DNA from: Candidatus Woesearchaeota archaeon
GTDB lineage: Archaea; Nanobdellota; Nanobdellia; Woesearchaeales; GW2011-AR9
Assembly: GCA_018303045.1 (NCBI GenBank)
Contig: JAGVYX010000009.1
Coordinates: 1-32,650, forward strand
Direction of reading: 5' to 3'
Length of the DNA stretch: 32,650 nt
The notes beneath the pieces were generated by a model. The model did no database searches. It worked only from the letters and a program-made list of their open reading frames with translations, and was not told the DNA's origin. The translations under genes were made by a program, and so were the position numbers. Shown piece by piece: positions 3,330-27,771 of this stretch (its first letter is position 1; every line of letters starts with the position of its first letter).

Positions 3330-3560
3330 ATGGACATCAGCAAACATCTATTGGTACCTAAACATACGAAGTTATCTGATGTAGATAAGAAAAAGGTATT
3401 TGATAAATATTCCGTTACCGTTAAGGAATTGCCTAAAATTATGAAAGACGATCCCGCCATCCATGCGCTTAATTCTAAAGTGGGAGATGTAATTATGATT
3501 GAACGGGAAAGCAAAACCGCCGGCAGAGCGATCTATTATCGGGTGGTAATTGATGGTTAA
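3330..3560 (+). CDS. rpoH: RNA polymerase subunit H (Rpo5)
   Basis: HLLVPKH, LPKI..DDPA, GDVIMIERES.TAG..IYYRVV motifs; first gene of the RNAP operon. Confidence 0.97.
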   Translation: MDISKHLLVPKHTKLSDVDKKKVFDKYSVTVKELPKIMKDDPAIHALNSKVGDVIMIERESKTAGRAIYYRVVIDG

Positions 3561-25946: not shown

Positions 25947-26702
25947 TTAACCTTTTAAATTAAGGTCTTTCTGCGCTGAAGCCATGGCTTTGGGCACTTC
26001 TTCATCATTGTTGAACAAGATGACTCTTACAGTAACGCTTTCCAAATTTCCAGCTTCTTTTTCATTGTAGCCGAAAGGTTTGTCCAAAGTCACTTTGCCA
26101 GACTGAGTTTCACCGGATCTTATCATCTGTAATTCAGAAGAAAGAGTAGCTTTTTTCTCTACATCTTCATAACCTTCGACCATGATTAAAAAATATCCCG
26201 GAGTTATTGAACCAGGTTCACCGTTAATGATCGAATAATCCAAAGCAATAATTTTTCCCCACGTATCCTGCCATTGCACTTCGAGGTCATTTAAGCTGAT
26301 TTTAGTGTTTTTATAAGTTTCAACAACCGGTTCATTGCTTTTATCTTCAACTGCTGGTTCAGATTCCTCTTTTAATTTGGTTTTTGGTTCTGTTACTGTT
26401 TCTTCTGGAAGAACTTCCTTGGGCTGGGATGGTTCTACTACTGCTTCCGTGGTGGTTAATCCAGTAAGCTCAAAATTGTTAGCGCTTAATCTTCCCAGAA
26501 AGAATACTGCTAGCAACACAACTACCACTAAGCCTACGCGGCCGATACGGCCTGGATTCAGCTTAATGCGTATTTCCCGGTCCTTTCCCGGACGCGAATT
26601 ATCTCTGGTTTCCCGAACGGGCTTGACTTCATCCCTGTTTTCCCGGAAGGGTTTTATTGGTCTGGAAACCTGCACACCATCTTCTTCAAATCCTCTTGCC
26701 AT
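25947..26702 (-). CDS. Membrane-anchored exported protein (TM helix, Pro/Glu-rich linker, beta-rich domain)
   Basis: VGLVVVVLLAVFFLG helix followed by LTG; AGGAGTGA SD. Confidence 0.8.
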   Translation of the reverse strand: MARGFEEDGVQVSRPIKPFRENRDEVKPVRETRDNSRPGKDREIRIKLNPGRIGRVGLVVVVLLAVFFLGRLSANNFELTGLTTTEAVVEPSQPKEVLPEETVTEPKTKLKEESEPAVEDKSNEPVVETYKNTKISLNDLEVQWQDTWGKIIALDYSIINGEPGSITPGYFLIMVEGYEDVEKKATLSSELQMIRSGETQSGKVTLDKPFGYNEKEAGNLESVTVRVILFNNDEEVPKAMASAQKDLNLKG

Positions 26703-26782
26703 AATAATATCACTCCTTTTAGATAATAGGTTAGAGTAAAATTTTAGGATATATAAAGATAACGGTGATTGAAGAATTATAG

Positions 26783-26812
26783 AAATGCACCCGCCTGGAT
26801 TCGAATCCGGTC
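26783..26812 (-). repeat. Degenerate duplicate of the tRNA-Gly(TCC) 3' end (att-like)
   Basis: AAATGCACCcGCCtGGATTCGAAT matches 27623-27646 at 22/24 positions in direct orientation. Confidence 0.88.
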
Positions 26813-26883
26813 TTTGAAAATATACTTACAATATTGACAATCTTTAATAATTTAATCTATTCATTCATACATAACTTTCTGAT

Positions 26884-27624
26884 ATGAATAAACAAAGATT
26901 AAATTCAACAGAATTAGACCAAATATCTACTTTAATTCTTAGTGGTTTTTCCTTAAAGACTATAGCAAATAAGCTTAATAAGAGTAAAACTACAATTTAT
27001 TATCATTTTAGAAAAGTTAAGGGTAAAACTATTATTCCTCTAACAATAAATCGATTAAACGACGAGTTGATTGGTGAATTTATCGGTTTATTCGCCGGTG
27101 ATGGTTCTTTTTACAAGACTAAAGATTATAAATATAAAATAAGGCTTCATTTTAGTTGCAGAGACCAGAATTATGTTGATAATTTGATCAAGAACGTATT
27201 AGTCCCCTTATTTAATAAAAAACCAATGCAATTTTTAGAAGAAAATAGACTTAATTTATGCTATAATTCTAAGGAACTTTATGGATTTATCAAACAGTAC
27301 TTGCTTTGGGATCATCATTTAAAGAAAACGTATACAGTTAGACTTATTTCAAATAATTATTCAAAGAAATTTTTAATTGGTTTTATTAGAGGTAGTTTAG
27401 ATAGTGATGGTCATTTTTCATCTGATAAAATTTCCTTTGCAACAGTTTCAACTAATCTTAAAGATAACATTATTTCTGCTTTAAAAATTTTAGATTTAAC
27501 CTATTCTGTTGGGTATTATGTTGATAAAAGACCTAATCGGGTTGGAATTTATCATATTAATATCCCCAAGGGAGAACATCCTAAGTTTATATCATTGATA
27601 AAACCAAGAAATATGAGGAGCTAA
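26884..27624 (+). CDS. Free-standing double-motif LAGLIDADG endonuclease-family protein with N-terminal HTH
   Basis: Motifs FIGLFAGDGS and FIRGSLDSDG; HTH-like SLKTIANKLNKSKTTIYYHF; no intein splice junctions; visibly more AT-rich than neighbours. Confidence 0.88.
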   Translation: MNKQRLNSTELDQISTLILSGFSLKTIANKLNKSKTTIYYHFRKVKGKTIIPLTINRLNDELIGEFIGLFAGDGSFYKTKDYKYKIRLHFSCRDQNYVDNLIKNVLVPLFNKKPMQFLEENRLNLCYNSKELYGFIKQYLLWDHHLKKTYTVRLISNNYSKKFLIGFIRGSLDSDGHFSSDKISFATVSTNLKDNIISALKILDLTYSVGYYVDKRPNRVGIYHINIPKGEHPKFISLIKPRNMRS

Positions 27625-27625
27625 A

Positions 27626-27771
27626 TGCACCGGCCGGGATTCGAATATCCGAACGCCGCTCCTCGAAGCGTTTCCCGGATCATCGGCTGACTTCTGGATA
27701 ATGGAAGGCCGACATTTGCTCGTTCCAATGCCATTAACAAATGGAACTACTAGCCGTTATACTACCGGTGC
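27626..27771 (-). tRNA. tRNA-Gly(TCC) with three introns: 23/24 (33 nt, 27716-27748), 37/38 (13 nt, 27689-27701), 53/54 (28 nt, 27646-27673)
   Basis: Removing the three inserts gives a 72-nt cloverleaf GCACCGG..TCGGC-CTTCCAA-GCCGA-TGAT-CCGGG-TTCGAAT-CCCGG-CCGGTGC-A. Each insert has BHB geometry, e.g. TCCG/CGGA with GG|A and TA|T. Confidence 0.93.

Follow-up and report, generated by a model that had tools for sequence, protein, structure and literature searches.

A probable mobile LAGLIDADG nuclease cassette in the T-arm of an intron-bearing tRNA-Gly gene of a woesearchaeal archaeon

Introduction

How does a nuclease gene come to end 1 nt from a tRNA gene, with a second copy of that tRNA's 3′ end on its far side? 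The question is raised by a 32,650-nt stretch of DNA from a Candidatus Woesearchaeota archaeon (contig JAGVYX010000009.1 of assembly GCA_018303045.1), the whole of which is called the window here. In it, a free-standing gene for a LAGLIDADG endonuclease abuts an interrupted tRNA-Gly gene with the anticodon TCC (UCC in RNA), whose T-arm is split by a 28-nt intron between tRNA positions 53 and 54 (53/54). The origin and movement of noncanonical archaeal tRNA introns is an old open question, and we know of no mobility enzyme that has been tied to them.

We propose, with a probability of about two in three (0.68), that window positions 26786 to 27673 are a ~0.9-kb mobile selfish nuclease cassette that sits in the T-arm of tRNA-Gly(UCC) and replaces the end of the tRNA. 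Read in the sense of the tRNA, the cassette would consist of the 28-nt bulge-helix-bulge (BHB) intron, a replacement T-loop and acceptor 3′ end, the abutting antisense nuclease gene, and the leader of that gene; the former tRNA 3′ end would have been pushed to the far side, where it decays. The window is contig C36 of the source assembly, G000 (74 contigs, 1.0 Mb, 39% G+C, 84% complete). This assembly was compared with 60 relative genomes (61 in all), of which G001 and G002 are of the same genus. Handles beginning with G, C, and L stand for genomes, contigs of G000, and loci.

Results

Anatomy of the locus

The interrupted tRNA-Gly(TCC) gene runs from 27771 to 27626 on the minus strand, carries three introns, and is invisible to ARAGORN and Rfam in the unedited sequence. 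Once the three inserts are removed, ARAGORN calls the remaining 72 nt a canonical tRNA-Gly(TCC). The 28-nt insert falls precisely at the junction of T-stem 5′ strand and T-loop, has no open reading frame (ORF) of its own, and begins 21 nt from the stop of the nuclease ORF. A single spacer base (27625) separates this stop (TAA, 27622 to 27624) from the complement of the tRNA discriminator A (27626), the spacing that the initial annotation of the locus had given. All features of that annotation were confirmed at their coordinates, and the locus is laid out as follows:

26767-26785, no strand: left junction of the cassette (blastn against the G001 locus)
26786-26810, minus strand: displaced, decaying copy of the tRNA 3′ end (local alignment and 21-nt probe), made up, as read from the sequence, of discriminator 26786, acceptor 3′ strand 26787-26793, T-stem 3′ strand 26794-26798, T-loop 26799-26805, and T-stem-5′-like CCGGA 26806-26810
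26811-26883, plus strand: A+T-rich noncoding leader of the nuclease gene, presumed promoter region (sequence read)
26884-27624, plus strand: free-standing nuclease gene, 246 amino acids (ORF, Pfam, and structure model)
27626-27645, minus strand: tRNA-Gly exon 4, the functional 3′ end, comprising T-loop, T-stem 3′ strand, acceptor 3′ strand, and discriminator (sequence and ARAGORN)
27646-27673, minus strand: 28-nt BHB intron at 53/54 (homologous in 19 aligned alleles)
27674-27688, minus strand: tRNA-Gly exon 3 (ARAGORN on the spliced sequence)
27689-27701, minus strand: anticodon-loop intron, 13 nt, after position 37 (removal by script)
27702-27714, minus strand: tRNA-Gly exon 2 (ARAGORN on the spliced sequence)
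27715-27747, minus strand: D-arm intron, 33 nt (removal by script)
27748-27771, minus strand: tRNA-Gly exon 1 (ARAGORN on the spliced sequence)

A 21-nt probe from the tRNA 3′ end found one extra site, at 26786 to 26806, with 2 mismatches (0 in 100 shuffles), and the local alignment of this distal copy scored 16, whereas the best of 200 shuffles scored 13. The probe match, together with three A's shared outside the tRNA, makes up the 22/24 direct repeat that had been annotated; the 2 differences in 21 nt between the proximal and distal copies could be decay. The distal T-loop is directly preceded by CCGGA, compared to CCGGG in the T-stem of the gene, so the distal copy lacks the 53/54 insert, again as annotated. 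Taken alone, this 4-of-5 match is weak (~0.016 by chance at a fixed place, by our own arithmetic). The T-stem of the distal copy pairs at only 3 of 5 positions, indicating that the copy has decayed, and no partner 5′ acceptor strand was found within 450 nt of it. We considered the distal copy as the functional 3′ half of a split tRNA and rejected this, given the 3/5 pairing and the lack of a complementary leader. An ORF inside a large tRNA intron was likewise rejected, since the ORF is antisense to the tRNA.

Similarity to the G001 locus (blastn) covers 26677 to 26766, where it stops 19 nt short of the distal fragment, and resumes at 27748; a host gene directly borders the cassette. We infer that the functional 3′ end (27626 to 27645) came in with the cassette.

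The interrupted gene is the sole archaeal-type tRNA-Gly(TCC) located in the G000 assembly. The other Gly(TCC) call, on contig C47, differs in its acceptor stem and has U as discriminator; we take it to be bacterial type, and the interrupted gene is therefore probably the organism's own. Uninterrupted tRNA-Gly(TCC), tRNA-Pro, and tRNA-Gly(CCC) genes, the Gly genes with discriminator U, were seen on the short contigs C47 (252 to 395) and C51 (4722 to 4793), which may be contamination. ARAGORN and Rfam find only 11 to 12 tRNAs in the 1.0-Mb assembly, suggesting that most G000 tRNAs are multi-intron genes left unannotated and that standard tRNA finders overlook most tRNAs of such genomes.

One further observation concerns the junction itself. 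At 27600 to 27625 in the window, as in L003 to L005, conserved codons of the nuclease C terminus (..KPRN..) are, on the other strand, a T-rich tract after the tRNA 3′ end, so the nuclease C terminus and a likely tRNA terminator would share bases. A sigma-70/terminator scan gave results at shuffle level, with models that are not applicable to archaea.

The nuclease

The predicted protein matches Pfam LAGLIDADG_3 at 31.9 bits (cutoff, 22.5). Its N terminus forms a three-helix helix-turn-helix (HTH; residues ~8 to 46), and the match to HTH_38 reaches 26.2 bits, slightly below the cutoff of 27. Motif 1 reads ...FAGDGS (D73), and motif 2 reads ...LDSDGH (D175); G72-D73-G74 and D175-G176 do not vary among 28 homologues aligned, with identity down to 30%, which argues for a maintained active site. 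A profile of these 28 homologues matched the solved structures of PI-PfuI (E = 1e-8) and I-DmoI (E = 9e-5). The AlphaFold2 model (predicted local distance difference test score, 92.7) shows three N-terminal helices followed by two alpha-beta-beta-alpha-beta-beta-alpha halves, and its best PDB matches in Foldseek are I-DmoI chains (E = 2e-10; template modeling score, 0.74 to 0.77 normalized by target). As modeled, the protein is a monomeric I-DmoI-type LAGLIDADG endonuclease with an added HTH, and DNA cleavage is predicted.

Database homologues fall into at least 85 clusters (31 to 100% identity) from Woesearchaeota, Nanoarchaeota, Pacearchaeota, and other DPANN assemblies, and those that are named are called hypothetical or LAGLIDADG endonuclease. 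Several end in peptides such as NAPAGIRISE. These are the antisense reading of a tRNA-Gly 3′ end and an independent trace of the same junction.

The leader of some cassettes, between the ORF start and the displaced tRNA fragment, carries the motif CCACTGGACA(A/T)(G/C)T, which does not occur in the window's cassette. It lies 48 to 223 nt upstream of the nuclease ORF in L076, L081, L082, L083 (a variant), L084, L085, L089, L096, and L111 and is also present on contig C44, at about 3470 to 3484. The motif may be an operator bound by the HTH domain, or it may mark the cassette end.

The 53/54 insert as a BHB intron

A homologous insert of 27 to 31 nt at 53/54 is present in all five cassette-bearing tRNA-Gly genes of relatives (5/5), and changes in its hairpin compensate each other. 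We tested a BHB model on 19 alleles, with 46:55 as the outer pair, a 4-bp helix between tRNA positions 48 to 51 and the 3′ segment of the intron, a 6-bp inner helix, and two 3-nt bulges (G52-G53-A, the A being the first intron base, and A/T-A-T54, the last two intron bases plus T54). Under this model, 98.5% of 202 cells pair, and 9 of the 11 pairs show changes on both sides; none of 500 shuffles reached any of these measures, and slid partners paired at 17 to 58%. In the canonical motif, BHB splice sites follow the second bulge base, which fits exons ending at 53 and starting at 54. The insert thus has the covariation expected of an archaeal BHB intron, with a textbook hBHBh′ form, and we class it as one on this comparative basis; its excision is predicted. 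A splicing endonuclease gene is present on contig C33 (PF01974; E = 3.8e-31).

Inserts at 53/54 (19 to 32 nt, in genes with further introns) were also seen in other G000 tRNAs, at 2652 to 2805 of the window (plus strand) and on contigs C9 (two genes), C18, and C74. No footprints were found by eye downstream of the other G000 tRNAs with a 53/54 intron.

Nuclease homologues at tRNA ends

Homologues of the nuclease are present in 17 of the 60 relatives and in neither of the two same-genus genomes. Flanking tRNAs were located with a home-made detector that scores acceptor and T-arm pairing, and the calls are uncurated. Twenty-four loci from relatives were oriented by their ORF (L020 and L024 were set aside, being second pieces or copies of L006 and L018). 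Nineteen of these loci have the ORF stop at a tRNA end, at a position from 75 nt inside to 47 nt outside it; chance would yield well under one such locus, given that ~45 tRNAs with 150-nt zones at both ends make up ~1.3% of 1 Mb. The initial annotation had raised the question of whether homologues converge on tRNA 3′ ends; 12 loci do so (L001 to L009, L014, L019, and L022), and 7 are codirectional onto a tRNA 5′ end (L010 to L012, L015, L016, L021, and L025). Among the remainder, L023 has a truncated nuclease gene with a tRNA 376 nt further on, no tRNA was found at the ORF end in L013, L017, and L018, and L026 runs to the contig end.

The association with tRNAs, as initially supposed, extends to a public set of 51 DPANN loci (one genome per species; four are the same places as L003 to L006), in which 43 of the 47 evaluable loci have a tRNA at the nuclease ORF end. 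The detector placed a tRNA end −120 to +250 nt from the stop in 39 of these, and L087, L090, L095, and L096 were added; it had missed the tRNAs at L087, L090, and L095, which were set by eye. No tRNA was found at the ORF end of L105, L113, L116, and L126, and L094, L120, L122, and L123 were not evaluable (contig end). ARAGORN confirmed 24 of the public-locus tRNAs without editing. Isotypes came from single-segment deletion plus ARAGORN, a procedure that is wrong or unstable for three-intron genes (L001 was called Asp); such genes were relabeled by eye or marked "unk."

In a maximum-likelihood tree of 57 nucleases (left out were the duplicates L003 to L006 and L096, the truncated L023, L020, L024, and loci without a tRNA), all 20 Gly(TCC)-neighbor nucleases fall in one clade (Shimodaira-Hasegawa-like approximate likelihood ratio test [SH-aLRT], 97). 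Ten Pro(TGG) neighbors fall in a clade of 12 (SH-aLRT, 97), of whose other two members at least one (L106) has a Pro-type acceptor stem, and the two Asp(GTC) rows pair (99). The tRNA labels require 19 changes on the tree compared to 34.9 in shuffles (0 of 200 as low), with the Gly labels set from the sequence, seven labels "unk," and labels shared among kin. Judged from this tree, the nuclease clades follow tRNA species.

The family is also represented a second time in G000. A paralogue on contig C44 (28% identical; LAGLIDADG_3) converges on tRNA-Phe(GAA), with its stop overlapping the tRNA 3′ end. In this tRNA too the T-arm is split, directly behind the T-stem 5′ strand, and just past the start of the ORF there is a T-loop/acceptor copy.

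Displaced tRNA ends and replacement

The clearest signs that a tRNA end was exchanged come from two relatives. L083 has an intact cassette and a functional half of the 53/54 type; its displaced half, beyond the ORF start, consists of GG, the start of the T-loop, a complete T-loop intron at positions 59/60, and then T-C-C, where similarity ends. This intron belongs to the family found in G003, G012, G018, G024, G030, G031, and G058. In G013, a tRNA with a 53/54 intron is followed 109 to 155 nt downstream by a remnant of the same L083-type 59/60 intron family; the nuclease gene is absent from this genome by tblastn (best E = 3.8). At both places the functional and displaced ends are of different allele types, indicating that the functional 3′ end was replaced, as had been proposed for the window. 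The same-genus genome G002 shows 90% identity over tRNA positions 1 to 70, the D-arm intron included. Past position 70 it has no anticodon-loop intron, no 53/54 intron, and no cassette, and it carries a 96-nt T-loop intron; its alignment with the window locus covers only the tRNA 5′ half and 37 nt upstream.

Displaced fragments recur elsewhere in the family. Those of 3′ ends beat all shuffles at L001, L005/L085, L077, and L088, and those of 5′ ends do so at the codirectional loci L016, L025, and L109. The distal 3′ copies start at tRNA positions ~49 to 54, the site of the intron, in G000, L085, and L088 and less exactly so in L077, L083, and C44. The fragment lies just beyond the ORF start at nine loci (G000, C44, L077, L085, L088, L083, L016, L025, and L109) and in every case comes from the tRNA end abutted by the ORF, the 3′ end when convergent and the 5′ end when codirectional.

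Some further sequences were noted around these tRNAs. The ~75-nt 59/60 T-loop intron starts with GGTTTAGCTTAGAAAA, ends with GTAAAACCTGTCTCGAAAG, and is strongly conserved across genera (G003, L032; G012, L028; G018, L054; G024, L066; G030, L061; G031, L051; G058, L069), with remnants in L055 (about 1730 to 1776) and L083 (about 1240 to 1320). This conservation suggests that the intron may have its own function, perhaps as a small RNA, or its own mobility. In G012 (L028), 12 nt of the tRNA-Gly 3′ end (CCGGCCGGTGCA) are repeated exactly ~50 nt downstream with no nuclease gene between, and this repeat may be the footprint of a lost insertion. At L016 (2200 to 2500), three tandem T-arm/acceptor copies of a long-arm tRNA lie downstream, 85 to 185 nt apart, with one interval N-masked, and the first 16 nt of the tRNA are repeated upstream of the codirectional nuclease ORF.

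Cooccurrence of intron and cassette

A census of tRNA-Gly found the 5′-end pattern in 41 of the 61 genomes; three GCC genes and G026 were dropped, and 38 TCC alleles were typed, 8 with a 53/54 intron, 21 with a T-loop 59/60 intron, and 9 with an intact T-arm. The cassette is present at 5 of the 8 alleles with a 53/54 intron and at 0 of the 30 without (hypergeometric probability by hand, 56/501,942, ~1e-4, relatedness ignored). In the public Gly clade, an insert of 27 to 32 nt occupies 53/54 in 17 of 19 convergent tRNAs; L087 and L090 carry a 59/60 intron besides, and L095 is codirectional.

Two sequences beside cassette-free tRNA-Gly genes were noted in passing. A structured-looking noncoding stretch at 930 to 1140 of L064 (G001) is 70% identical to 700 to 904 of G000 contig C42, a different locus. 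In G022 (L067), a G+C-richer ORF at 1756 to 2409, cut by the contig end, follows the cassette-free tRNA-Gly with a 53/54 intron. This ORF was not called an integrase, having no Pfam hit and a weak PHROG match (phrog_1; E = 0.001); it may mark an integrative element at the same tRNA.

Discussion

Evidence against a mobile cassette and alternative explanations

Several results weigh against a mobile cassette that replaces tRNA ends. The initial annotation had named an intron-less T-arm as the target, which two loci contradict: the displaced halves of L083 and G013 carry a 59/60 intron, so the invaded alleles were not intron-less there, and a nuclease that cuts near 53/54 must tolerate a 59/60 intron. 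Similarly, 21 of the 30 tRNA-Gly alleles without the cassette carry a 59/60 intron and so are not intron-less. The window's own distal copy has no 59/60 intron, and G001 and G002 both have one; it is therefore not simply an old G002-like end. Its acceptor variant is that of G004 and G027, and it may have traveled with the cassette or simply mutated. At L088, the bases before the distal T-loop resemble the 3′ end of the 53/54 intron. The two copies in G011, proximal and distal, have a genome-specific acceptor variant in common, and this would fit a duplication in place, or homing between near-identical genomes, no less than foreign import.

Displaced fragments are also infrequent. Besides G000, a distal fragment was found in just 4 of 18 tested Gly-clade public loci (3 by score and 1 by eye) and in 1 of 23 distant paralogues, leaving 14 and 22, respectively, without one. 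Decay would leave most loci without a fragment, but duplication need not have arisen at every insertion.

The link between cassette and intron, which the initial annotation had predicted, stands in the counts above with exceptions on both sides: L091 and L093 have the cassette with an intact T-arm and no 53/54 intron, and G013, G022, and G037 have the intron without the cassette. The corollary that cassette-free relatives lack the intron is accordingly true of both same-genus genomes but not of these three. Among distant paralogues, the neighboring tRNA usually has an intact T-arm (inserts occur in C44, L019, L111, and L112 only), indicating that the intron link is specific to the Gly clade and that the rule for the family is abutment to a tRNA end. 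There is also no clean empty site. G001 keeps the order of SMC, a membrane-protein gene, and tRNA-Gly, with ~1 kb of other genes at the equivalent place, where the cassette's position is taken by an HxlR-type gene, an RNA-like stretch, and a small basic ORF.

The alternative that survives best, which we nevertheless regard as unlikely, is a resident nuclease gene, no longer mobile or domesticated, that was inherited vertically with many losses, the intron link reflecting shared ancestry. Clustering of tRNA labels on the tree is also expected from vertical inheritance at a fixed locus, and nuclease identity mostly tracks that of the host SMC (60 versus 67% in G021, 53 versus 59% in G011, and 52 versus 60% in G025). 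At least five other G000 tRNAs have a 53/54 intron of the same build (A-rich first bulge, inner hairpin, a segment complementary to 48 to 51, and ...AA before T54) but no nuclease gene, which, with the three cassette-free tRNA-Gly alleles, is what a resident gene with coincidental introns would leave. The cassette allele also appears fixed in four metagenome runs, in whose Logan contigs it is contiguous and no contig skips it, contigs being unable to show absence; two joints inside the tRNA belong to tRNA-Gly genes of other organisms.

Vertical residence is at odds with several other observations. Both same-genus genomes lack the cassette, and their tRNA has another type of T-arm intron. In G052, which belongs to another family, the nuclease is 53% identical and SMC 46%, which alone hints at transfer. 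The catalytic residues are invariant across the 28 diverse sequences, and the displaced halves are of a different allele type from the functional ones. Independent paralogues repeat the end duplication at Phe, Gly(CCC), and long-arm tRNAs. Moreover, both orientations occur within the Pro clade, at the same tRNA species, so inheritance of one fixed arrangement is no explanation. The G025 copy is a pseudogene with a TAG stop, and together with the lost cassette of G013 it may be a sign of a gain-and-loss cycle.

Improbable in our estimation is a local duplication unrelated to the nuclease, in which tRNA genes are rearrangement hot spots and the nuclease gene landed between two copies. The tandem tRNA 3′-part copies downstream at L016 and the short tRNA-Gly end copy without a nuclease gene in G012 would fit such a history, as would the rearrangement of the locus among the three same-genus genomes, part of the G001 stretch lying on G000 contig C42. 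It leaves unexplained that the fragment, which shuffling does not produce, lies just beyond the ORF start in nine loci and is always the abutted tRNA end.

The remaining alternative, the remnant of a tyrosine-integrase element whose tRNA-end copies are attL and attR and which later lost all but the nuclease gene, has the classic mark of direct repeats of a tRNA 3′ end and the ORF after the same tRNA in G022 in its favor but is highly improbable, and an integrase island at this locus is excluded: the sole Phage_integrase (PF00589) match in the 1.0-Mb assembly is on contig C60 and none is on the window's contig, in line with the integrase-free cassette of the initial annotation, a single ORF fills the 0.86-kb interval between the tRNA-end copies, host sequence also present in G001 extends to within 19 nt of the distal copy, the one-gene layout recurs in dozens of loci and the C44 paralogue, and neither the ORF stop abutting the tRNA nor the codirectional cases with 5′ fragments would be explained.

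Proposed mechanism

A mobile, end-replacing cassette could work in four steps. The nuclease would attack tRNA-Gly genes without the 53/54 intron, cutting them within the T-arm or close to it. A cassette-bearing copy would then serve in recombinational repair, through which intron, new 3′ end, and nuclease gene would enter at once. The intron would split the DNA site of the nuclease, and the host splicing endonuclease would remove it from the RNA, leaving a functional tRNA. Cleavage, the cut site, the immunity of the intron allele, and the route of repair are what we infer here; the sole indirect evidence for a cut at the intron insertion site is that distal copies start at tRNA positions ~49 to 54. 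A tRNA arm offers no silent positions at which a target might be disguised, so splitting the site with a spliceable insert would be the only way in which the nuclease gene could sit beside a functional copy.

More tentatively, and with doubt outweighing confidence, homing-endonuclease cassettes might both create and spread noncanonical BHB introns in archaeal tRNA genes. A nuclease targeting a tRNA arm could persist only beside an intron-split copy, and homing would carry the intron into new genomes; after decay of the nuclease gene the intron would remain, as in G013. If this is true, repeated cycles by nucleases specific for different tRNA species would explain part of the extreme tRNA intron load of DPANN archaea.

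Apart from that proposal, the survey defines by sequence a large family of DPANN nucleases whose clades each appear tied to one tRNA species. One clade appears tied to a specific, structurally supported BHB intron at the place where the tRNA end was replaced. Compact monomeric LAGLIDADG enzymes serve as meganucleases, and the family is a source of candidate new specificities.

Comparison with known systems

Within the full text that we searched, with subscription journals outside the coverage, there was no description of LAGLIDADG genes abutting archaeal tRNA genes. The nuclease resembles I-DmoI in its monomeric two-motif fold and in having both catalytic Asp residues. Unlike I-DmoI and the other archaeal LAGLIDADG endonucleases borne by rRNA introns or inteins, it is free-standing, has an added N-terminal HTH, and is associated with tRNA. 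A survey of archaeal group I introns found LAGLIDADG ORFs in rRNA introns only (PMC6125680).

Tyrosine-integrase elements at tRNA 3′ ends share with the cassette the direct repeats on both sides and an element that supplies the functional tRNA end. The cassette differs in having no integrase and a single gene within 0.86 kb, in the stop that abuts the tRNA, and in the mirror cases at 5′ ends. A looser likeness is to free-standing nuclease genes of phage T4. SegB reportedly acts in the T4 tRNA region. MobE mobilizes a neighboring defunct intron-borne nuclease (PMC2790892). Like these, the cassette would promote inheritance of itself and of neighboring DNA; SegB and MobE are GIY-YIG and HNH enzymes of phage genomes, and in contrast the cassette appears to replace a tRNA end and involves a BHB intron.

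The closest parallels are two. Mobile ORFs (mORFs) of fungal mitochondria, found at atp6 in Allomyces macrogynus and at atp6, atp9, cox2, and nad3 in Glomus, place a LAGLIDADG or GIY-YIG gene at the end of a host gene, where a foreign end joins the core and the native end is displaced beyond the ORF and diverges (PMC3630166). As there, a free-standing nuclease ORF lies between a functional and a displaced end, and at L083 and G013 the two ends are of different types; the window's own proximal end may be foreign as well. Mitochondrial mORFs have protein genes as hosts, whereas the host of the cassette is a chromosomal tRNA gene of an archaeon. The nuclease gene, which in mORFs is fused in frame, here runs antisense to the host gene or lies upstream of it, and a BHB intron connects the replacement end, where mORFs show synonymous divergence.

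In cyanophage psbA, free-standing F-CphI adjoins a group I intron without an ORF; the intron prevents self-cleavage, and the nuclease mobilizes the intron (PMC6083498). The window likewise has a nuclease gene beside a host gene with a short intron that has no ORF and would interrupt the target of the nuclease, and intron and cassette cooccur strongly. In place of the psbA ribozyme intron, however, there is a BHB intron of 27 to 32 nt that would be spliced by protein, and in place of a phage enzyme of the Endo VII type there is a LAGLIDADG nuclease of a cellular archaeon, whose cut site and immunity are predicted. An end duplication, for which the phage system has no need, is present as well. 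Because its BHB fold sets the 53/54 insert apart from self-splicing group I introns, the likeness to collaborative homing is one of working and not of membership. By analogy, then, the cassette resembles an mORF element in how it would work and, in the Gly clade, collaborative homing, while being a member of neither family; if so, end-replacing mobile ORFs and collaborative homing, two mechanisms of organelles and phages, would be extended to the chromosomes of archaea and to RNA genes.

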